In this document: positions 5,888 to 36,349 of the stretch, piece by piece | Layout of the letters: every line of letters starts with the position of its first letter | Position numbering within the stretch: the first letter of the stretch is position 1 | Notes under the pieces: model-generated | What the model was told of the DNA's origin: nothing | Seen by the model: only the letters and a program-made list of their open reading frames with translations | Database searches by the model: none | Translations under genes and position numbers: made by a program | Sequence record: MZ234021.1 | Strand: one strand, 5' to 3' | DNA: 40,233 bases | From: Escherichia phage vB_EcoP-101118UKE1

Positions 5888-6147
5888 CGCAGATGGACTT
5901 AGAGAAGTTCCTCTTGATGCTTGATACTGAACGTGCTCGACTCATGCTGCAAGACTTGCGGGATGACACTAAGCGTTCACCTCAGCTCTACAACGCCATT
6001 GAGAAGCTGCTTGCTCGTCACAACTTTGTGTTAAGCAAGGTGTCTGTGGACGAGAAGGCGCTGGCTGATATGGAGGCCCTGAACGCAGAGTACGATAAGG
6101 TTCTTTCAGCGACTGAGGATAATGACACCGGGTATGGTGTTCAATAA
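5884..6147 (+). CDS. Terminase small subunit (gp18-like)
   Basis: 87 aa; ATGA start/stop overlap with holin; size, position and RSPQLYNAI motif as in T7 gp18. Confidence 0.8.
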   Translation: MTQMDLEKFLLMLDTERARLMLQDLRDDTKRSPQLYNAIEKLLARHNFVLSKVSVDEKALADMEALNAEYDKVLSATEDNDTGYGVQ

Positions 6148-6158
6148 GTGTTAGACTC

Positions 6159-6185
6159 AAGGTCATTACTATATGTAGTGGCCTT
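6159..6185 (+). promoter_or_regulatory. Putative RNase III processing hairpin (R18.5-like)
   Basis: AAGGTCAT 6159-6166 pairs with GTGGCCTT 6178-6185 in RNA (G-U wobble allowed), upstream of Rz gene. Confidence 0.45.
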
Positions 6186-6248
6186 TATGGTTAACACACA
6201 CTACGGGCGGCGACGCTACGTGGATTCTGAGAAATGAGGAGGGCAACT

Positions 6249-8881: not shown

Positions 8882-8930
8882 TAACTATAGGTGAAAGCTG
8901 CATGAATAAGCAGTTAGTAACCTATAGTTA
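8882..8930 (+). repeat. 11-bp perfect inverted repeat immediately after terminase gene
   Basis: TAACTATAGGT 8882-8892 and ACCTATAGTTA 8920-8930, 27-nt spacer. Confidence 0.6.
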
Positions 8931-8966: not shown

Positions 8967-8989
8967 ACTTAACTATCACTATAGGGAAG
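8967..8989 (+). promoter_or_regulatory. Phage RNAP promoter (phiOR-type, right genome end), +1 at 8984
   Basis: ACTTAACTATCACTATA/GGGAAG. Confidence 0.8.
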
Positions 8990-9169
8990 ACCCCCGGTTA
9001 CTTATAGTATTACTGTAGTGAATATACATATGCAGACTTTATGCAAGACCTTAGGAGGCAGACTCCGAGTTCTTACCTAAGGCTTGCACCGATGGAAGGA
9101 GGGTGATATTAATCATAATCCCTCCAATACAGATAGTCACCGACCATAGATACAGGAGGTATGTAGCAT

Positions 9170-9361: not shown

Positions 9362-9404
9362 CTAAGGTCAGTACGTGGATAAAGACTCACTATACTGACC
9401 TTAG
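9362..9404 (+). repeat. 12-bp perfect inverted repeat enclosing a T7-type promoter-like motif, ~170 bp before the terminal repeat
   Basis: CTAAGGTCAGTA 9362-9373 and TACTGACCTTAG 9393-9404; spacer contains AAAGACTCACTATA. Confidence 0.6.
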
Positions 9405-10143: not shown

Positions 10144-10272
10144 GTACCACATCAACACGAAACAACGGTGACGACCAACACTGAAACGGTCTACCTGAAG
10201 TCCTCTGACTGAAGGGAATGCTCTTTAACAATCTGGATAAACTCTTAATGTGCGCCGATAGCGACTAACTAC

Positions 10273-10302
10273 AGGGCCTTTGAGTCTACATCTGAAGGCC
10301 CT
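10273..10302 (+). promoter_or_regulatory. Putative RNase III processing hairpin (R0.3-like) before first early gene
   Basis: AGGGCCTT 10273-10280 / AAGGCCCT 10295-10302 perfect stem; followed by the GGCCCTGACTGATAGTCACTAAC box. Confidence 0.5.
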
Positions 10303-10335
10303 GACTGATAGTCACTAACTTAAAGGATGGACACT

Positions 10336-10581
10336 ATGAAACACTTAAGCACAATCACTAATCGCAATGAAGTATTCGTGAACACTAAAGGTTATGCGTG
10401 GATTCAGCTTAAAGAGATGACAGGAGCGCGTCACCGTGTGGTAGTTCGCAAGGTATCAAGCAAGCAGTTCAGCAACTACAGCGTCGATACTGTGCGTATA
10501 GACAACGAGACATACCTGATAGACTCGCAGATAACCGTGAGTCCTACAGTGGGCGTCTCAGCTCCTTATTTCGCTAACTGA
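10336..10581 (+). CDS. Hypothetical early protein (first gene after the early promoters)
   Basis: ORF 10327..10581; second ATG 10336 has better spacing from AAAGGATGG; preceded by an RNase III-type hairpin; no recognisable homolog. Confidence 0.5.
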   Translation: MKHLSTITNRNEVFVNTKGYAWIQLKEMTGARHRVVVRKVSSKQFSNYSVDTVRIDNETYLIDSQITVSPTVGVSAPYFAN

Positions 10582-10594
10582 GAGTGATTAACTA

Positions 10595-10620
10595 CAGGTC
10601 GTTAGACTGATAGCGGCCTG
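10595..10620 (+). promoter_or_regulatory. Putative RNase III processing hairpin before Ocr gene
   Basis: CAGGTC / GGCCTG stem; followed by GGCCTGACTGATAGTCACTAAC box 10615-10636. Confidence 0.45.
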
Positions 10621-10664
10621 ACTGATAGTCACTAACACATAATTAACTTTGAGAGGATATAACT

Positions 10665-11168: not shown

Positions 11169-11324
11169 TGGTAACTTATGGCCTCTGCCAGCACCACGTC
11201 ACTAACGCCCGGCTTATGGTCAAGACCGGGCAGTTAGACCACGATTGGGCTATGCGTCTCTTGAAAGTGGTCTACAGGAGACGCAAGCGTATACACGACA
11301 GTTTACACGCTAAGTGACAGACTA

Positions 11325-11348
11325 CAGGTCATCAATGCTGGTGGCCTG
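11325..11348 (+). promoter_or_regulatory. Putative RNase III processing hairpin before 11381 gene
   Basis: CAGGTCAT 11325-11332 / GTGGCCTG 11341-11348; followed by GGCCTGACTGATAGTCATTAAC box 11343-11364. Confidence 0.45.
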
Positions 11349-11380
11349 ACTGATAGTCATTAACAACTGAGAGGGAAGAT

Positions 11381-11608: not shown

Positions 11609-11681
11609 CCTAAATAAACAGGAGAGAACCAAATCATAGCTTGACCATAACACTGACGTGATGGTACTGAGTGATAGACGA

Positions 11682-11707
11682 GAGGTCATCGACTGATAGG
11701 TGGCCTC
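11682..11707 (+). promoter_or_regulatory. Putative RNase III processing hairpin
   Basis: GAGGTCAT 11682-11689 / GTGGCCTC 11700-11707, loop CGACTGATAG. Confidence 0.4.
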
Positions 11708-11740
11708 AAAGATTACCACTTACATTGATAGGAGTTAACT

Positions 11741-15698: not shown

Positions 15699-15721
15699 CC
15701 TAAACTATCACTATAGGCTTA
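15699..15721 (+). promoter_or_regulatory. Phage RNAP promoter (phi1.1-type), +1 at 15716
   Basis: CCTAAACTATCACTATA/GGCTTA. Confidence 0.8.
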
Positions 15722-15726
15722 GACTC

Positions 15727-15753
15727 AAGGTCATGACTCAAAGTCGTGGCCTT
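15727..15753 (+). promoter_or_regulatory. Putative RNase III processing hairpin (R1.1-like) just after phi1.1-type promoter
   Basis: AAGGTCAT 15727-15734 / GTGGCCTT 15746-15753. Confidence 0.5.
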
Positions 15754-15794
15754 CATGATTAACCCTAAATAAACACTACTGGAGATTTAACCGT

Positions 15795-22637: not shown

Positions 22638-22802
22638 ATGCTACGAAAACTTAAAGCTCGCTACCATCGGTTCATGTACAAATGGTGGAGCGATGAAGCA
22701 ACCTTCCTGTCCAACATTCTGGGAGACCAGAGGTTCGACTCTAAGGCATGGAAGAAAGCTAACCGTAAGTTCATGTACCACTTCTTACGTACAGACTTCT
22801 AG
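22638..22802 (+). CDS. Hypothetical small protein (54 aa)
   Basis: AGAGGAGAG RBS 22622-22630; not in ORF track. Confidence 0.5.
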   Translation: MLRKLKARYHRFMYKWWSDEATFLSNILGDQRFDSKAWKKANRKFMYHFLRTDF

Positions 22803-22812
22803 GTCTAGACTC

Positions 22813-22837
22813 AAGGTCATTCACATAGAGTGGCCTT
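22813..22837 (+). promoter_or_regulatory. Putative RNase III processing hairpin after gene 4 region
   Basis: AAGGTCAT 22813-22820 / GTGGCCTT 22830-22837. Confidence 0.45.
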
Positions 22838-22865
22838 TATGATTAGACTAAACGGAGGATTAACC

Positions 22866-23267: not shown

Positions 23268-25426
23268 GTAACGTATACGGGTCTGACATCGAGACCAACG
23301 GTCTCCTTGATACAGTCTCCCAGTTTCACTGTGGGGTCCTGATTAACGCCGAGTCGAATGAGACCCTTAAGTATGGGGTAGCTCCGATGGTCGGTATCGT
23401 CGGTGGCTTCAAAGAGTATGTTCATAAAGTGGAAGAGATTGCCGCATCGCCTGATGGTATGCTTGTATTCCACAACGGTATCAACTATGACGTACCGGCT
23501 ATCGACAAGCTGAAGCGTCTGTACTTTGGGAAGCGTTTTAACTTCCCGAAACACAAGATGGTTGATACCTTGGTGCTGGGCCGCTTGATGTATCCAAACA
23601 TTAAGTTCTCAGACATGGGCGCTGTGAAAGCTGGTCGTCTGCCACCTCAGATGATGGGACGACAGTCTCTTGAGGCTTGGGGCTATCGTCTCGGTGAGAT
23701 GAAAGGTGAATACAAACACGATTATGTTGCCAAATGCAAGGCTGAAGGTATCGAATATAAGGCTGGGGACGAATGGTTGTTCCCGTCTCAGGAGATGCTG
23801 GACTATAACGTTCAAGACGTTGTGGTCACACTGGCGTTGTTCAAGAAGTTCCTGACTGACAAGTATTACTTCCAGTCTGAACAGTTCGCTTTCGACCAGA
23901 TTTATGCGTTGCGTCTGGAACATGATGCTGCGTGGACCTGTGCGAAGATGGAACGTAACGGCTATCCGATGAACACCGAGATGGTCGAAGGCTTATATCG
24001 TGAACTCACCGTCAAACGTGCAGAGTTGTTGGACAAGCTGCGTTCGACTTTCGGTAGCTGGTATGCACCAAAGGGAGGCAAGGAGTTCTTCAAGCACCCA
24101 CGGACAGGCAAGGACCTTCCGAAGTATCCGCGAGTCGTGTATCCTAAGGTCGGGTCAGTATTCAAGAAGCCGAAGAACAAAGCTCAACGATTAGGTCTGG
24201 AGCCTTGCGAGTTCGACTCACGAGACACGATGGAAGGAGCACCGTTCACACCTATCACTTACGTTGAGTTTAATCCGGGAAGCGGAGACCACTTAGCGAA
24301 AGTCCTGATGGAGCGTGGCTGGGAGCCTGTGGACTTCACTGACACCGGGAAACCTGTAGTCGATGACGAGACGTTGGAACACGTTAAGTTACCAGACGCA
24401 GAGGCTCAGGCTTGCGTAGAGCTGGTCCGTGAGTATCTGGTAGTCCAGAAGCGCATCGGTCAGGCGGCTGAAGGTAAGAACGCATGGTTGAAACTTGTAG
24501 GTCCAGACGGACGTATGCACGGCTCAATAAACCCATGCGGGGCAGTAACCGGACGTGCGACCCATAGTTCACCAAACATGGCTCAGGTCCCGGCTAACGG
24601 TGCTCCATATGGTGAGACTTGCCGTGGTGCTTTCGGTGCAGCGTGGAACAAGAAGGACGGTAAGCCAGACCCTTGGATTCAAGTTGGTGTGGATGCCTCA
24701 GGTCTTGAGCTTCGTTGTCTTGGGAACAGAGCGGCTCCGTTTGATGGTGGTGCATATGCGAAGACTGTGGTAGAAGGTGACATCCACTGGGCCAACGCAG
24801 TAAACGCTGGGTTAGCACCTAACGTCCAACGCGATAAGTCTAACCACGACCATGAGGCTTTCCGTAACAACGCTAAGACGTTCATCTACGCGTTCCTGTA
24901 TGGTGCAGGGGCCGCTAAGATTGGACTGATAGTAGGCGGTGGTAAGAAGGAAGGTTCAGCGCTCATGAAGAAATTCATTGAGGGTACACCAGCTATCAAG
25001 GACCTCAGGGAAGCTGTAAGTAATACGTTAATCTCAGACTCTAAGTGGGTGGACGGAGAGAACATCGTTAAATGGAAACGTCGCTGGCTGAAAGGTCTGG
25101 ATGGTCGTCGTATTCACATCCGGTCTCCACACTCAGCACTTAACGCCCTACTTCAGGGGGACGGTGCGGTTGTCTGTAAGCACTGGATGGTACTGACTGA
25201 GAAGAAACTTGAAGAGGCTGGTTACGGTAACGGATGGGACGGCGACTTTGCGCTAATGGCTTGGATTCACGATGAATTGCAGATAGCGTGCCGTACTCAG
25301 GAGATAGCAGAAGATGTCGTCCGTATTGCTCAAGAGGCGATGCGCGAGGTCGGACGCTTCTATAACTTCAAGTGTGAACTTGATACGGAGGGTAAGATTG
25401 GACCAACGTGGAAAGAGTGTCATTGA
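23258..25426 (+). CDS. DNA polymerase (gp5)
   Basis: 722 aa, colinear with T7 gp5 (SDIE exo motif, AVTGRATH, NAKTFIYAFLYGAG, HDE). Confidence 0.97.
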   Translation: MDLSNVYGSDIETNGLLDTVSQFHCGVLINAESNETLKYGVAPMVGIVGGFKEYVHKVEEIAASPDGMLVFHNGINYDVPAIDKLKRLYFGKRFNFPKHKMVDTLVLGRLMYPNIKFSDMGAVKAGRLPPQMMGRQSLEAWGYRLGEMKGEYKHDYVAKCKAEGIEYKAGDEWLFPSQEMLDYNVQDVVVTLALFKKFLTDKYYFQSEQFAFDQIYALRLEHDAAWTCAKMERNGYPMNTEMVEGLYRELTVKRAELLDKLRSTFGSWYAPKGGKEFFKHPRTGKDLPKYPRVVYPKVGSVFKKPKNKAQRLGLEPCEFDSRDTMEGAPFTPITYVEFNPGSGDHLAKVLMERGWEPVDFTDTGKPVVDDETLEHVKLPDAEAQACVELVREYLVVQKRIGQAAEGKNAWLKLVGPDGRMHGSINPCGAVTGRATHSSPNMAQVPANGAPYGETCRGAFGAAWNKKDGKPDPWIQVGVDASGLELRCLGNRAAPFDGGAYAKTVVEGDIHWANAVNAGLAPNVQRDKSNHDHEAFRNNAKTFIYAFLYGAGAAKIGLIVGGGKKEGSALMKKFIEGTPAIKDLREAVSNTLISDSKWVDGENIVKWKRRWLKGLDGRRIHIRSPHSALNALLQGDGAVVCKHWMVLTEKKLEEAGYGNGWDGDFALMAWIHDELQIACRTQEIAEDVVRIAQEAMREVGRFYNFKCELDTEGKIGPTWKECH

Positions 25427-31044: not shown

Positions 31045-31067
31045 ACTAAACTATCACTATAGGGAGA
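31045..31067 (+). promoter_or_regulatory. Phage RNAP promoter (phi10-type, major capsid), +1 at 31062
   Basis: ACTAAACTATCACTATA/GGGAGA, the only copy with the full GGGAGA start. Confidence 0.9.
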
Positions 31068-31169
31068 CCAAGAGACAGACTCAAGGTTTCCCTATTACTT
31101 CAGTCCATACGGATTGGGCATACAGTAAGTAATAAACTTTATCTTTCAATTGAATAGGAGAATTATCAT

Positions 31170-32219
31170 ATGGCAAACGTTCCGGGTCAGAAAGTTGGTA
31201 CAGACCAAGGTAAAGGCAAATCTGGTTCCGACGCTCTGGCGTTGTTCCTGAAGGTCTTTGCTGGCGAAGTCCTGACAGCATTCACTCGCCGCTCTGTAAC
31301 TGCTGACAAGCATATTGTCCGTACCATTCAGAACGGTAAGTCTGCTCAGTTCCCGGTCATGGGTCGCACCTCTGGTGTGTATCTGGCTCCGGGTGAGCGA
31401 CTGTCCGATAAGCGTAAAGGTATCAAACATACCGAGAAAGTGATTACCATTGATGGTCTGCTGACTGCCGATGTGATGATTTTCGACATTGAAGACGCGA
31501 TGAACCACTATGACGTGGCTGGCGAGTACTCCAACCAGTTGGGCGAAGCTCTGGCTATCGCTGCCGATGGTGCGGTACTGGCTGAGATGGCTATTCTGTG
31601 TAACCTACCGGCTGCATCTGATGAAAACATCGCTGGTCTTGGCAAAGCGTCTGTGCTGGAAGTTGGTACTAAAGCAGACCTGAACACTCCGGCTAAGCTG
31701 GGTGAAGCAATCATCGGTCAACTGACCATTGCTCGTGCGAAGCTGACATCCAACTACGTTCCTGCTGGCGACCGTTACTTCTACACCACGCCGGACAACT
31801 ACTCTGCAATCCTCGCGGCTCTGATGCCGAACGCTGCTAACTATGCTGCGCTGATTGACCCAGAGACTGGTAACATCCGTAACGTAATGGGCTTCGTGGT
31901 TGTTGAAGTTCCACACTTGACTCAGGGTGGTGCTGGGGAAACTCGTGGTGCCGATGGTATCGCTATTGCGACTGGTCAGAAGCACGCCTTCCCAGCTACT
32001 GCTACTGGTGATGTTAAAGTTGCTCTGGACAACGTTGTGGGCCTGTTCTCTCACCGTTCTGCTGTAGGTACTGTTAAGCTGCGTGACTTGGCGCTGGAAC
32101 GTGACCGTGACGTCGATGCTCAGGGCGACCTGATTGTTGGTAAGTACGCTATGGGTCACGGTGGTCTGCGTCCAGAAGCAGCAGGCGCACTGGTTTTCAC
32201 AGCGGCGTCAGCGGGTTAA
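31170..32219 (+). CDS. Major capsid protein gp10A
   Basis: 349 aa; FLKVF.GEVLTAF, KHTEKVITIDGLLTADV, YAALIDPE, HRSAVGTVKLRDLALER match T7 gp10. Confidence 0.97.
   Translation: MANVPGQKVGTDQGKGKSGSDALALFLKVFAGEVLTAFTRRSVTADKHIVRTIQNGKSAQFPVMGRTSGVYLAPGERLSDKRKGIKHTEKVITIDGLLTADVMIFDIEDAMNHYDVAGEYSNQLGEALAIAADGAVLAEMAILCNLPAASDENIAGLGKASVLEVGTKADLNTPAKLGEAIIGQLTIARAKLTSNYVPAGDRYFYTTPDNYSAILAALMPNAANYAALIDPETGNIRNVMGFVVVEVPHLTQGGAGETRGADGIAIATGQKHAFPATATGDVKVALDNVVGLFSHRSAVGTVKLRDLALERDRDVDAQGDLIVGKYAMGHGGLRPEAAGALVFTAASAG
32192..32198 (+). promoter_or_regulatory. Putative -1 programmed ribosomal frameshift site in capsid gene
   Basis: G GTT TTC heptamer eight codons before the 10A stop, same motif and position as in T7 gene 10; -1 frame open to 32482. 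Confidence 0.5.
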
Positions 32220-32482
32220 CGACCTTTAAGGCCCTCTCTACAGAGGGTCCTACCTTAGAGACGTATAGTTCTACGGTGGGAACCAGCCTGAAGGTTGACT
32301 TCCCTGAGCTTTCAGATGTGACCGATTGGTCGCTGCTTGAGGTGACTACGCCTGATGGTGTTAGCTACTCCCGTAGAACCAACAGTCTCTACTTCAAGGC
32401 CACCTCTGGCGTGGAAGGTCTGGTGATTGTTGGGTATGACGGGACGCCTGTGCGTTCCTTCAACGTATCTTTCACAAACTAA
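32198..32482 (+). CDS. C-terminal extension of minor capsid protein gp10B, reached by -1 frameshift from gene 10A
   Basis: -1 frame is open from 32144 to stop at 32482; conserved GGTTTTC heptamer 32192-32198 as at the T7 10A/10B shift site. Confidence 0.55.
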   Translation, partial: HSGVSGLTTFKALSTEGPTLETYSSTVGTSLKVDFPELSDVTDWSLLEVTTPDGVSYSRRTNSLYFKATSGVEGLVIVGYDGTPVRSFNVSFTN

Positions 32483-32488
32483 TTGAAA

Positions 32489-32526
32489 CCCCTTGGGTGC
32501 CTTCGGGTGCTTGAGGGGTTTTTTTT
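32489..32526 (+). terminator. Tphi-like late terminator after capsid gene
   Basis: CCCCTTGGGTGC-CTTCGG-GTGCTTGAGGGG stem-loop followed by TTTTTTTT, closely resembling T7 Tphi. Confidence 0.9.
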
Positions 32527-32540
32527 CTTAAGGAGGGACT

Positions 32541-32630
32541 ATGGTCCTTATTTACACAGGGTTAGCACTATTCGTCTTATTCTGGGCGTACCTGCTGTCC
32601 AGCTCACCGTCTAGCGCCTATGACCGTTAA
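32541..32630 (+). CDS. Possible small hydrophobic peptide (29 aa)
   Basis: AGGAGGG 32531-32537 just after Tphi; MVLIYTGLALFVLFWAYLL; may be non-coding. Confidence 0.25.
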   Translation: MVLIYTGLALFVLFWAYLLSSSPSSAYDR

Positions 32631-32641
32631 GGAGTAAACCT

Positions 32642-33208
32642 ATGGCTCAATACATTCCACTGAATGCTAACGATGACTTAGATGCCATCAACGATATGTT
32701 AGCAGCTATCGGTGAACCAGCAGTCCTACAGCTTGACGAAGGTAACGCTGACGTCTCGAACGCTCAACGTATCCTGCATCGTGTCAATCGTCAGGTCCAA
32801 GCTAAAGGCTGGAACTTTAACATCAACGAAGCTGCTGTCCTGACACCTGATGTCCAAGACAATAGGATTCGATTCCTGCCGTCTTACCTTCGGGTCATGA
32901 CTGCTGGTGCTACCAGTTACTACAGCAACATGGGGGGCTATCTCTATGACCTGTCCACTCAGTCCACGACCTTCACTGGACCAATTACAGTCGAACTGGT
33001 GGAGATGAAACCGTTCGCTGAGATGCCTGTAGTATTCCGTGACTACATCGTTACCAAGGCCAGCCGTGAGTTCAACGCTAAGTTCTTCGGTAGCCCAGAG
33101 TCTGAACTGTACCTTCGTGAGCAGGAAGCAGAACTCTATCAGCAGGTCATGGAATACGAGATGGATACTGGTCGCTACAACATGATGTCAGACATCGGGA
33201 GGGACTAA
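32642..33208 (+). CDS. Tail tubular protein A (gp11)
   Basis: AAGGAG RBS; INDMLAAIGEP, GWNFNINEA, YEMD motifs as in T7 gp11. Confidence 0.92.
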   Translation: MAQYIPLNANDDLDAINDMLAAIGEPAVLQLDEGNADVSNAQRILHRVNRQVQAKGWNFNINEAAVLTPDVQDNRIRFLPSYLRVMTAGATSYYSNMGGYLYDLSTQSTTFTGPITVELVEMKPFAEMPVVFRDYIVTKASREFNAKFFGSPESELYLREQEAELYQQVMEYEMDTGRYNMMSDIGRD

Positions 33209-33435
33209 TGGCTAGTCACAACCTGAAGATTCACCGCCAGCACTTTGGTCTGGTACAACTAGGTCTAAAGACAGCAGAGCTGAGACTTAACGACCGGGAC
33301 TTTAAGGTTGGCGACTGGCTTATCCTGAATGAGTGGGACAACGGGTATACTGGACAACAGGTAGCGCGTAAGGTTGTCCACATTGCTGACGTTGGTGAGA
33401 TCGCTGAGGGATATGTCCTAATGAGTATGATTTAA
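33208..33435 (+). CDS. Small ASCH/PUA-like protein (DUF3850-like?), inserted between gp11 and gp12
   Basis: GGGAGGG RBS, TAATG overlap with gp11 stop; LKIHRQHF...KTAELRLNDRDFKVGDWLIL pattern. Confidence 0.55.
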   Translation: MASHNLKIHRQHFGLVQLGLKTAELRLNDRDFKVGDWLILNEWDNGYTGQQVARKVVHIADVGEIAEGYVLMSMI

Positions 33436-33444
33436 GGAGAGCCT

Positions 33445-35802
33445 ATGCCATTAATTACGCAAAGCATAAAAAATCTTAAAGGTGGTATTAGCCAACAGCC
33501 TGACATCCTGAGGTTCTCAGACCAAGGCGAGGCTCAAGTTAACTGCTGGTCATCCGAGAGTGATGGCCTCCAGAAGCGTCCACCTACAGTCTTCAAGCGA
33601 CGTCTTAACATCGACGTTGGGAGCAACCCTAAGTTCCACCTGATTAACCGTGATGAGCAGGAGCAGTATTACATCGTGTTCAACGGGTCCAACATTCAGG
33701 TAGTCGACTTGAGCGGTAATCAGTACTCAGTTTCAGGTGCGGTAGACTACGTTAAGTCGTCCAACCCGCGAGATGACATCCGTGTCGTTACAGTTGCAGA
33801 CTATACGTTCGTCGTTAACCGTAAGGTTGTCGTTAAAGGTGGAAGCGATAAGTCACACTCTGGTTATAATCGTAAAGCACGCGCTTTAATTAACCTGCGT
33901 GGTGGACAGTATGGTCGCACCCTTAAGGTAGGAATCAACGGAGGCGTTAAGGTTTCGCATAAGTTGCCAGCAGGTAATGATGCCGAGAATGACCCTCCTA
34001 AGGTTGATGCTCAGGCTATCGGTGCAGCTCTGAGAGACCTTCTTGTTGCTGCTTACCCTACCTTCACGTTCGACCTTGGGTCTGGATTCCTGTTAATCAC
34101 TGCCCCTTCAGGGACTGACATTAACTCAGTGGAGACGGAGGATGGCTACGCTAACCAGCTAATCAGCCCAGTACTCGACACGGTGCAAACAATCTCTAAG
34201 CTGCCTCTTGCAGCTCCAAATGGGTACATCATTAAGATTCAAGGTGAGACCAACAGTAGCGCCGATGAGTATTACGTGATGTATGACTCCAACACTAAGA
34301 CGTGGAAGGAGACAGTAGAGCCGGGAGTGGTCACTGGGTTCGATAACACCACAATGCCACATGCTCTGGTTAGACAATCTGACGGCTCCTTTGAGTTCAA
34401 GACTCTGGACTGGTCTAAGCGGGGTGCTGGTAATGATGACACAAACCCTATGCCTAGCTTCGTGGATGCTACGATTAACGATGTGTTCTTCTACAGGAAC
34501 AGGCTAGGGTTCTTGTCAGGAGAGAACGTAATCATGAGCCGTTCAGCCAGCTACTTTGCGTTCTTCCCTAAGAGTGTGGCGACATTGAGTGATGATGACC
34601 CTATTGACGTAGCTGTAAGTCACCCTAGAATCTCAATACTTAAGTATGCCGTTCCGTTTAGCGAGCAGCTACTACTTTGGTCAGATGAGGTGCAGTTCGT
34701 GATGACAAGCTCGGGGGTCCTTACCTCGAAGTCTATCCAGCTTGATGTAGGCTCAGAGTTTGCCTTAGAAGATAACGCCAGACCGTTCGCTGTAGGACGC
34801 TCAGTCTTCTTCTCAGCGCCTCGTGGGTCATTCACCAGTATTAAGCGATACTTCGCTGTAGCAGATGTGTCTGACGTGAAGGATGCCGATGATACCACTG
34901 GTCACGTACTGTCCTATATCCCTAACGGGGTGTTTGACATTCAAGGTACAGGGACTGAGAACTACATCTGCGTCAACTCCACAGGTGCATGCAACCGAAT
35001 CTACATCTACAAGTTCTTGTTTAAGGACGGCGTACAACTTCAAGCCTCTTGGTCGCACTGGGAGTTCCCTAAAGCTGATAAGATTCTGGCGTCTGCGTCG
35101 ATTGGCTCTACCATGTTCATTGTTCGTCAGCACCAAGGGGGTGTGGACATTGAGCACCTTAAGTTCATCAAGGAGGCAACCGACTTTCCATTAGAGCCGT
35201 ATAGACTCCACGTTGACTCTAAGGTGTCTATGGTAATACCAATTGGCTCATACAACGCTGACACCTATAAGACTACGGTTGACATTGGTTCTGCTTATGG
35301 TGGAAACGCTCCGTCTCCCGGTAGGTACTATCTGATTGACAGTCAGGGTGCCTACGTGGACCTTGGTGAATTGACCGACATCTCAACTGTGGCTGTACTC
35401 AATGGTGATTGGTCAGGACGTACAGTGTTCATCGGACGGTCTTATCTGATGTCCTACAAGTTCTCACGGTTCCTGATTAAGATTGAAGACGAGAGTGGCA
35501 CTCAGTCTGAAGACACTGGTCGTCTACAGCTTCGTCGTGCTTGGGTAAACTACAAGGACACTGGCGCTCTTAGACTCATTGTCAGAAACGGTGAGCGGGA
35601 GTTCGTGAACACCTTTAATGGGTACACCCTTGGTCAGCAAACCATAGGGACTACCAACATTGGGGATGGTCAGTATCGATTCGCTATGAATGGCAACGCA
35701 TTAACCACGAGTCTAACCTTAGAGTCCGACTATCCTACCCCGGTGTCCATCGTTGGGTGTGGCTGGGAGGCGTCATACGCTAAGAAAGCTCGTTCCGTCT
35801 AA
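33445..35802 (+). CDS. Tail tubular protein B (gp12)
   Basis: 785 aa; SIKNLKGGISQQPDILR, GFLSGENVIMSR, DDDPIDVAVS, LRRAWVNY, IVGCGWEA match T7 gp12. Confidence 0.95.
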   Translation: MPLITQSIKNLKGGISQQPDILRFSDQGEAQVNCWSSESDGLQKRPPTVFKRRLNIDVGSNPKFHLINRDEQEQYYIVFNGSNIQVVDLSGNQYSVSGAVDYVKSSNPRDDIRVVTVADYTFVVNRKVVVKGGSDKSHSGYNRKARALINLRGGQYGRTLKVGINGGVKVSHKLPAGNDAENDPPKVDAQAIGAALRDLLVAAYPTFTFDLGSGFLLITAPSGTDINSVETEDGYANQLISPVLDTVQTISKLPLAAPNGYIIKIQGETNSSADEYYVMYDSNTKTWKETVEPGVVTGFDNTTMPHALVRQSDGSFEFKTLDWSKRGAGNDDTNPMPSFVDATINDVFFYRNRLGFLSGENVIMSRSASYFAFFPKSVATLSDDDPIDVAVSHPRISILKYAVPFSEQLLLWSDEVQFVMTSSGVLTSKSIQLDVGSEFALEDNARPFAVGRSVFFSAPRGSFTSIKRYFAVADVSDVKDADDTTGHVLSYIPNGVFDIQGTGTENYICVNSTGACNRIYIYKFLFKDGVQLQASWSHWEFPKADKILASASIGSTMFIVRQHQGGVDIEHLKFIKEATDFPLEPYRLHVDSKVSMVIPIGSYNADTYKTTVDIGSAYGGNAPSPGRYYLIDSQGAYVDLGELTDISTVAVLNGDWSGRTVFIGRSYLMSYKFSRFLIKIEDESGTQSEDTGRLQLRRAWVNYKDTGALRLIVRNGEREFVNTFNGYTLGQQTIGTTNIGDGQYRFAMNGNALTTSLTLESDYPTPVSIVGCGWEASYAKKARSV

Positions 35803-35809
35803 CTTATTG

Positions 35810-35859
35810 AAGGGCCTATAGATTTACCTTAACTATCACTATAGGGACTATAGGCCCTT
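35810..35859 (+). repeat. 12-bp perfect inverted repeat bracketing the phi13-type promoter
   Basis: AAGGGCCTATAG 35810-35821 and CTATAGGCCCTT 35848-35859. Confidence 0.6.
35827..35849 (+). promoter_or_regulatory. Phage RNAP promoter (phi13-type), +1 at 35844
   Basis: CCTTAACTATCACTATA/GGGACT, flanked by a 12-bp inverted repeat. Confidence 0.85.
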
Positions 35860-35878
35860 AAGGTTATAAGGAGACTTT

Positions 35879-36349
35879 ATGTATATTCGCAAGGCTACGG
35901 AACAGGATGTCCACTACTTTCTGTGGCATCTTTCAGCAGATGATGTTAATGAGTGCAAAGCAAACTATGGGTCAACCGTTGGTCTCTCTGAAAGACTGCT
36001 TAAGCATCTATCTCCGTCATCTGTGGTTTTAACGAATGGTGTAGGCGAAGTGTTTGCCTATGGTGGAAACCAAGGGGATAACGTATGGTTCTTGACTTCC
36101 GGTCTTGTCCATAAGCTGAGACCTAAAGAGAAGCGGGAGTTCATAAAGCGTATCTCTGAGTACAGGGACTTAATGTTAGACCAATACGGGACCATCTGGA
36201 ACTACGTGTGGTCAGGCAATAAGTCTCACATTAAATTCTTGAAGTTGCTTGGGGCTAAATTCCATGATGATTGGACTGTCAGCCCGGTAACTGGTGAGCG
36301 TTTTCAATTATTCACTATCTCTAAGGAGGACGTATGTGTGAACCCGTAA
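35879..36349 (+). CDS. Internal virion protein gp13-like
   Basis: AAGGAG RBS; position downstream of phi13-type promoter. Confidence 0.7.
   Translation: MYIRKATEQDVHYFLWHLSADDVNECKANYGSTVGLSERLLKHLSPSSVVLTNGVGEVFAYGGNQGDNVWFLTSGLVHKLRPKEKREFIKRISEYRDLMLDQYGTIWNYVWSGNKSHIKFLKLLGAKFHDDWTVSPVTGERFQLFTISKEDVCVNP

Follow-up and report, generated by a model that had tools for sequence, protein, structure and literature searches.

What does a perfect inverted repeat do when its two arms enclose a predicted late promoter, as they do between genes 12 and 13 of Escherichia phage vB_EcoP-101118UKE1? We addressed this question in the whole 40,233-nucleotide stretch of record MZ234021.1 (hereafter, the window, whose numbering is used throughout). 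The window is a circularly permuted Kayfunavirus genome in which every long ORF lies on the + strand. The 1.1 kb around the element is 95-99% identical to many Kayfunavirus (K1F-like, T7-group) genomes, and the gene 12/13 spacer of phage K1F itself is identical to that of the window. Both arms are non-coding, being placed between the stop codon of gene 12 (35802) and the start of gene 13 (35879). The features discussed below are collected in Table 1.

Table 1. Features of the gene 12/13 junction and matches to the canonical RNase III model in the window.
Feature	Position	Strand	Sequence, basis or comment
Gene 12, tail tubular protein B (gp12), 785 aa	ORF 33445-35802	+	ORF and annotation of relatives
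Gene 12 stop codon	35800-35802	+	TAA
Ambiguous lower stem, 5' side	35797-35809	+	TAACTT 35800-35805, or CTTAT 35803-35807 with GTCT 35797-35800
5' arm	35810-35821	+	AAGGGCCTATAG; repeat finder; confined to RNA from upstream promoters
Loop, 26 nt	35822-35847	+	promoter positions -22 to +4 throughout
Predicted K1F-type phage RNA polymerase promoter, phi13 position	35827-35849	+	-17 to +6; consensus match
3' arm	35848-35859	+	CTATAGGCCCTT; +5 to +16 of the predicted phi13 transcript
Internal loop and lower stem, 3' side	35860-35875	+	cut predicted at ~35862/35863 by T7 analogy
Gene 13 Shine-Dalgarno sequence	35869-35874	+	AGGAGA; read from sequence; ATG at 35879
Gene 13, internal virion protein A, 156 aa	ORF 35879-36349	+	ORF and annotation of relatives
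Canonical-model matches	6143-6205, 10254-10323, 10577-10640, 11307-11368, 11664-11727, 15709-15773, 22795-22857	+	covariance model

The original prediction described this locus as a perfect 12-bp inverted repeat that holds a phage promoter in its loop, and both halves of the description were borne out. A repeat finder returned two 12-nt arms, 100% complementary and 26 nt apart, which match those of the prediction exactly in position and sequence. Perfect 12-bp inverted repeats with a loop of at most 60 nt occur twice in the window, as the element and at 9362-9404, against a simulated expectation of 0.13; at least one such repeat was found in 8% of the sequences simulated with a first-order Markov model of the window. 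The CTATAGG of the promoter recurs as the first 7 nt of the 3' arm. The perfect 12 bp is a property of the K1F-like subset only, and a 9-bp core, GGCCTATAG/CTATAGGCC, is essentially universal among the relatives.

The loop contains a perfect TATCACTATAGGGA at 35834-35847. This motif is present in the window in 4 perfect and about 12 near-copies (15 matches compared with 3.0 expected), and the 12 copies that we took as promoters are all on the + strand, mostly just upstream of genes, and have in common a longer upstream consensus, CT(A/T)AACTATCACTATAGG. At the element, CACTATAGG is present at -7 to +2 of a consensus of ~23 bp, together with the upstream CCTTAAC common to the other sites. The homologous site in phage vB_EcoA_ASO2B (GenBank) is annotated as matching the published K1F promoter consensus, and promoters are annotated at the same junction in T7, 13a, phi15, phiPSA2, fPS-10 and CR8. 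Alignment with T7-type promoters sets +1 at 35844, 4 nt ahead of the 3' arm, and the promoter, which shares the + strand with all the genes, stands 35 nt 5' of the gene 13 ATG. As judged by these matches, the spacer of the element is a K1F-type (T7-group) single-subunit RNA polymerase promoter with a predicted start at 35844. In the interval from 31052 to 35834, there is no consensus promoter match except for one with 3 mismatches at 31958. Because genes 11 and 12 thus have no promoter match of their own, RNA that crosses the junction from upstream must exist, and the two genes must be read from further upstream, as they are in T7.

According to the original prediction, such read-through RNA could fold into a long hairpin, and RNA initiated at 35844 would contain only the 3' arm. 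Folding analyses supported both statements. RNA from 35795 to 35880 folded with an energy of -27.8 kcal/mol (z -3.6, with 0 of 200 shuffled sequences as stable) into the 12-bp stem placed on a short lower stem; the isolated hairpin gave a z of -3.8, and the pair probabilities of the stem were 0.65-1.0 in a 240-nt context. The +1 position falls between the arms, so that RNA started at 35844 carries the 3' arm only, and this RNA showed no significant structure (z +1.4), nor was a stable 5' hairpin (GGG...CCC) predicted in it by folding. An internal loop divides the lower stem from the upper one, and the lower stem has two alternative minimum-energy folds of equal energy. Across the relatives, the pairing of 35800-35805 with 35861-35866 is kept in 93% of cells, with a change from U-G to U-A. 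By raw folding energy, the region ranks 417th among 4015 folding windows (approximately the top 10%), and stability alone would therefore not have singled the element out. An Rfam scan of 35500-36200 gave chance-level matches only, none of which was at the element.

We also considered the idea that the lower stem masks the Shine-Dalgarno sequence of gene 13 and that a cut would free it. This idea was rejected, since the unpaired probabilities of 35869-35874 are similar in all three RNAs (0.49-0.57 in the read-through RNA, 0.40-0.58 in the promoter-initiated RNA and 0.57 in the post-cut RNA). Pairing of the Shine-Dalgarno sequence with the lower stem is also not kept in the relatives that carry a 10-nt insertion in front of it.

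The hypothesis that we favor, with moderate confidence, is that the element is an RNase III-type processing hairpin that corresponds to T7 R13 by its position and to T7 R6.5 by its design. Read-through RNA from the gene 9/10 promoters, carrying genes 11 and 12, would copy both arms and fold so that a 12-bp upper stem, closed by a 26-nt loop of promoter sequence, stands on the short and less defined lower stem. Host RNase III would then most likely cut the 3' side of the hairpin, at approximately 35862/35863, and the cut would separate a gene 11-12 message that ends in a protective 3' hairpin from the message for gene 13 onward. RNA initiated at the promoter (+1 = 35844), lacking the 5' arm, would form no hairpin, begin with an unstructured leader and escape the cut. 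Our analysis shows the repeat, the promoter match, the predicted folds, the conservation and the equivalent hairpins across the subfamily, whereas a cut by RNase III, its site and any consequence for stability are inferred. The selected RNA hairpin itself, for which the evidence is given below, is more secure than its cleavage by this enzyme. The original prediction went further in suggesting that processing of the upstream RNA might be coupled with use of the promoter. The evidence does not reach that far. The geometry provides a means of discrimination, in that the full hairpin is found only in RNA from upstream promoters.

In T7, a weak RNase III site, R13, is reported to lie between genes 12 and 13, besides the promoter phi13 (bioRxiv 10.1101/106799, citing Dunn and Studier 1983). 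The R13 hairpin of T7, UUCUCCCUGUGGUGG / CUCACUAUAGGGAGAA, folded as predicted, with its 5' arm set against the promoter. The element resembles R13 in several respects: it occupies the same spacer, between the genes for tail tube B and internal virion protein A; it is a stable + strand hairpin just after the gene 12 stop; and it overlaps the promoter, so that promoter-initiated RNA is left without the 5' arm. Hence, the likeness to the RNase III site near T7 gene 13, to which attention had originally been drawn, is apt, given the same junction, a promoter-overlapping hairpin in T7 and the weak R13. The two differ in how the promoter is used. T7 and most genera pair the promoter (~-10 to +7) as the 3' arm, with many G-U pairs, whereas in the element the promoter stays single-stranded within the loop and positions +5 to +16 make up the 3' arm.

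For the T7 cleavage positions, which reportedly come from Dunn and Studier in 1983, we took the cuts to be at 890 (R0.3), 1468 (R0.5), 3138 (R1), 5887 (R1.1), 6448 (R1.3), 11203 (R3.8), 13892 (R4.7), 18563 (R6.5), 27281 (R13) and 36856 (R18.5). When the RNA at these positions was folded, 9 of the 10 cuts fell 2-3 nt 3' of an upper stem, which usually had an AAGG/CCUU base, and the cut assumed for R13 fell 1 nt past its stem. The consistency of the distance from stem to cut supports the coordinates that we assumed. The AAGG/CCUU stem base and an upper stem of ~10 bp are likewise found in the 12-bp stem of the element, AAGGGCCTATAG/CTATAGGCCCTT. A scan for hairpins of at least 10 bp with an AAGG...CCTT base, which recovers 7 of the 10 T7 RNase III sites, found 5 on the + strand of the window (6159-6185, 9364-9402, 15727-15753, 22813-22837 and the element), with 0.06 expected.

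We built a covariance model from eight canonical T7 sites (R0.3, R0.5, R1, R1.1, R1.3, R3.8, R4.7 and R18.5). The held-out R6.5 of T7 scored 30.8 bits with this model, the element scored 5.1 bits on the + strand and T7's own R13 scored 3.9 bits. The low score of the element results from its having neither the canonical ACUC / UAUGAU internal loop nor the lower-stem consensus (~9 bp). Judged by sequence and structure, then, the element does not belong to the canonical T7-type RNase III signals, and it resembles T7's R13 in being non-canonical. It does have in common with the canonical sites that it is an irregular intergenic hairpin on the + strand with an AAGG/CCUU base and a predicted internal loop and lower stem, but its loop is 26 nt long compared with 3-5 nt, and the conserved sequence of the internal loop and lower stem is missing. 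Seven other sites in the window passed the canonical model at 31-49 bits, all on the + strand (Table 1). The match at 6143-6205 precedes a gene 18.5-like ORF and four are in the early region, while that at 15709-15773 follows the RNA polymerase gene behind a promoter at 15706 and that at 22795-22857 is between the primase/helicase and DNA polymerase genes. Their positions are equivalent to those of the T7 early sites, R1.1, R4.7 and R18.5. The seven matches probably represent the phage's canonical sites of RNase III processing. A literature search found no paper describing RNase III sites of K1F-type phages and no RNA-end data for them.

The closest parallel in design is R6.5 of T7, a documented RNase III site. 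It consists of AAGGTCCCTA, a 26-nt loop that is the phi6.5 promoter, and then TAGGGGCCTT. R6.5 and the element have the same AAGG.../...CCUU base of the upper stem (10 bp in T7 and 12 bp in the element) and a 26-nt promoter loop, and in both cases promoter-initiated RNA carries the 3' arm only. They differ in that R6.5 lies at another gene junction and keeps the canonical ACUC / UACGAUUA flanks. The gene 6.5-type promoter of the window (27226) has no such promoter-in-loop hairpin.

One could envision that the hairpin remains uncut and serves as a barrier or stabilizer in the read-through RNA, for example by blocking 3' exonucleases once another endonuclease has cut the RNA, or that it insulates genes 12 and 13 from each other in folding and translation. 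The stable and conserved hairpin that fails to match the canonical RNase III model would suit such a role, and since canonical sites are used elsewhere in the phage, a different design could mean a different job; furthermore, R13 of T7 is itself only weakly cleaved. We nevertheless think that this explanation is unlikely, because the position is that of a documented T7 RNase III site and the geometry is common to R6.5, which the canonical model recognizes. In addition, the size range of RNase III substrates covers a 12-bp stem extended by the lower stem.

Another scenario, in which the hairpin acts as a terminator or attenuator for the phage or host polymerase and limits read-through from genes 11-12, leaving gene 13 and those after it reliant on the loop promoter, seems very unlikely to us. 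A T7-type class I terminator requires a U-run after a stable hairpin. Although the equivalent hairpin of phage fPS-10 is annotated 'terminator' and has a T-rich tract after it, the stem of the element is followed by AAGGTTATAAGG (tail AAGGUUAUAAGG), without a U-run, and a terminator scan found no terminator-like site here. The loop of 26 nt is also far larger than those of intrinsic terminators. The termination function that had been mentioned in the original prediction as an alternative to processing is, therefore, not supported.

If the hairpin acts in RNA, then the question is whether the same junction of other phages bears the marks of an RNA element. We folded GenBank spacers that included those of T7, 13a, Ebrios, T3, phiYe-F10, a Przondovirus, fPS-10, VP4, phi15, phiPSA2, PPWS4 and phiA020, as well as 60 distinct gene 12/13 spacers from IMG/VR. 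A junction hairpin was seen in 12 of the 13 GenBank genomes folded, the exception being phi15 with its 25-nt spacer, and a strong hairpin lies just past the gene 12 stop in nearly all of the 60 IMG/VR spacers. The promoter core (-8 to +4) is the 3' arm in 40 of 45 distinct non-Kayfunavirus spacers and the 5' arm in three. When 26 distinct hairpins were anchored on +1, the 5' arm was found to co-vary with the lineage-specific promoter: the pairs at position -1 are A-U (11), U-A (8), U-G (4), C-G (1) and G-C (1), and those at position +2 are G-C (11), C-G (7) and G-U (4). G-U pairs are frequent in the hairpins of other lineages (18 of 25 at -4, for example), and in 41 of the 45 other spacers, as in 15 of the 16 from Kayfunavirus, the + strand gives a better fold than the - strand. 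The frequency of G-U pairs and the strand asymmetry indicate an element that works at the RNA level rather than the DNA level. Taken together, these comparisons argue well for selection on a hairpin that acts at the RNA level at this junction throughout Studiervirinae.

The alternative is an element of the DNA itself, such as a cruciform or a symmetric protein-binding site, that modulates the opening or occupancy of the promoter. The arms are, after all, perfect Watson-Crick complements, and the repeat brackets the promoter exactly. We consider this highly improbable in view of the asymmetry of the strands and of the reliance of other genera on G-U pairs, which are mismatches in DNA; even the one arm substitution within the genus gives a G-U pair. 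Moreover, a 26-nt spacer disfavors the extrusion of a cruciform.

The layout with the promoter in the loop was observed at this junction only in Kayfunavirus-type spacers. Here, the promoter core is not the 3' arm, and no more than 7 nt of the 5' arm are able to pair with the promoter. The nearest outgroup that we identified, Citrobacter phage CR8, is arranged as in T7, with the promoter core as the 3' arm. In a few lineages, namely L099, L117 and L135 of IMG/VR and vibriophage VP4 (L032), the promoter begins right at the gene 12 stop and serves as the 5' arm, the 3' arm of the hairpin being located downstream of it. These constitute a third layout of the junction, in which promoter-initiated RNA would keep part of the hairpin.

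Two records from the comparison deserve mention. In Yersinia phage fPS-10 (L030, LT962907, 1127-1160), the annotated 'terminator' at 24721-24754 encloses the promoter at 24729-24751; it is the same promoter-overlapping hairpin under the annotators' label. In the T3 record KC960671 (L028), a run of 16 G precedes gene 13, and the T3-like relatives have 4-10 G. The run is either a length-variable homopolymer or a sequencing artefact.

Within Kayfunavirus, we collected relatives from IMG/VR through their similarity to gp13 or the C-terminus of gp12, independently of the repeat, and the element was present in 23 of 24. The 3' arm is invariant in all 16 distinct spacers and in three further Kayfunavirus phages from GenBank. 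In the core of the 5' arm (35813-35821), 15 of the 16 show no change, and the sole substitution, from A to G, keeps a G-U pair. The third pair, 35812-35857 of the AAGG/CCUU base, is broken in 11 of the 16 distinct relatives. There were zero double-sided (compensatory) pair changes among the 16 Kayfunavirus spacers, a covariation count that is without power, and the support from within the genus is strong invariance, not covariation. The arms are fixed where the neighboring coding DNA is only 62-72% identical and the adjacent spacer varies by substitutions and a 10-nt indel. The loop varies too, and in some relatives it is occupied by three other promoter specificities between the same arms: the upstream promoter halves AAACTATTACACCCTCACTATAGGGA, AAATATTTAACACTCACTATAGGGA and AAATTATTTTACCCTCACTATAGGGA are found between unchanged arms in L018, L021 and L025 of IMG/VR and in L149 (Cronobacter phage vB_CtuP_B1). 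The swapped halves imply switches of RNA polymerase/promoter specificity within or next to the genus. An exact search of IMG/VR for GGCCTATAG...CTATAGGCC yielded 27 contigs, of which 22 were of the Kayfunavirus type and had already been recovered by gp13 similarity; inspection showed the remaining 5 to be unrelated sequence. There is only a slight chance that the repeat has no function and is what remains of a promoter core that was locally duplicated or inverted. The three copies of CTATAGG (one in the promoter, one in the 3' arm and an inverted one in the 5' arm) and the lack of compensatory substitutions could be read in this way, but 9 + 12 nt have remained invariant amid that divergence, and the subfamily as a whole has kept a junction hairpin that clearly co-varies.

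An RNase III-type processing hairpin, our preferred explanation, leaves room for a broader proposal, namely that pairing of the phi13-promoter RNA into a hairpin is itself the requirement throughout the subfamily, and not merely a convenient location for RNase III. We regard this as quite unlikely. If it were true, the hairpin could mark read-through and promoter-initiated messages for different stability or translation of the internal-virion gene block, and Kayfunavirus would have shifted the 3' arm to a downstream position, which leaves the promoter RNA unpaired in the loop.

A promoter that overlaps an RNase III hairpin, with the result that only upstream transcripts are processed, is already classical in T7, as phi13/R13 and phi6.5/R6.5. 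The Kayfunavirus element is a previously unannotated example, an R6.5-type layout at the R13 position, and as such is ordinary for the field; it leaves the understanding of T7-group gene expression unchanged. It adds an RNA-processing-type element to the K1F-like phages, which are under development against E. coli K1 and related pathogens, and in the refactoring of such genomes phi13 and both of its flanking arms should be treated as one unit. The junction hairpin, with a 5' arm that tracks the promoter, is also a natural example of the co-evolution of a promoter and an RNA structure.

Other repeats and promoter-like sequences were observed in the window. The second perfect 12-bp inverted repeat (9362-9404) is CTAAGGTCAGTA / TACTGACCTTAG, with 19 nt in the loop; it is situated close to the presumed left end of the genome and precedes the first early ORF (9489). 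The base of its stem resembles AAGG/CCUU, and the loop and 3' arm include a T7-like promoter core, GACTCACTATA, without the GGG start; the canonical RNase III model did not match it. An 11-bp inverted repeat, TAACTATAGGT / ACCTATAGTTA, is located at 8882-8930, directly past the stop codon of the terminase large subunit (8872) and ~45 nt upstream of a promoter at 8974, and its arms contain CTATAGG, like those of the gene 12/13 element. A degenerate promoter-like sequence, TATTACTGTAGTGA, with 3 mismatches, is found at 9008-9021. It follows the perfect promoter at 8974 by 34 nt and belongs to the region past gene 19, close to the presumed end of the genome.

At the major capsid promoter (+1 = 31062), a hairpin spans 31059-31095, in which the -3 to +8 sequence ATAGGGAGACC forms the 5' arm and pairs with GGTTTCCCTAT. 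The 90-nt segment around it gave a z of -6.1, and the hairpin is similar to the stem-loop at the 5' end of the T7 phi10 leader. Downstream of the capsid gene, 32211-32460 contains strong hairpins that likely correspond to the Tphi-type terminator.
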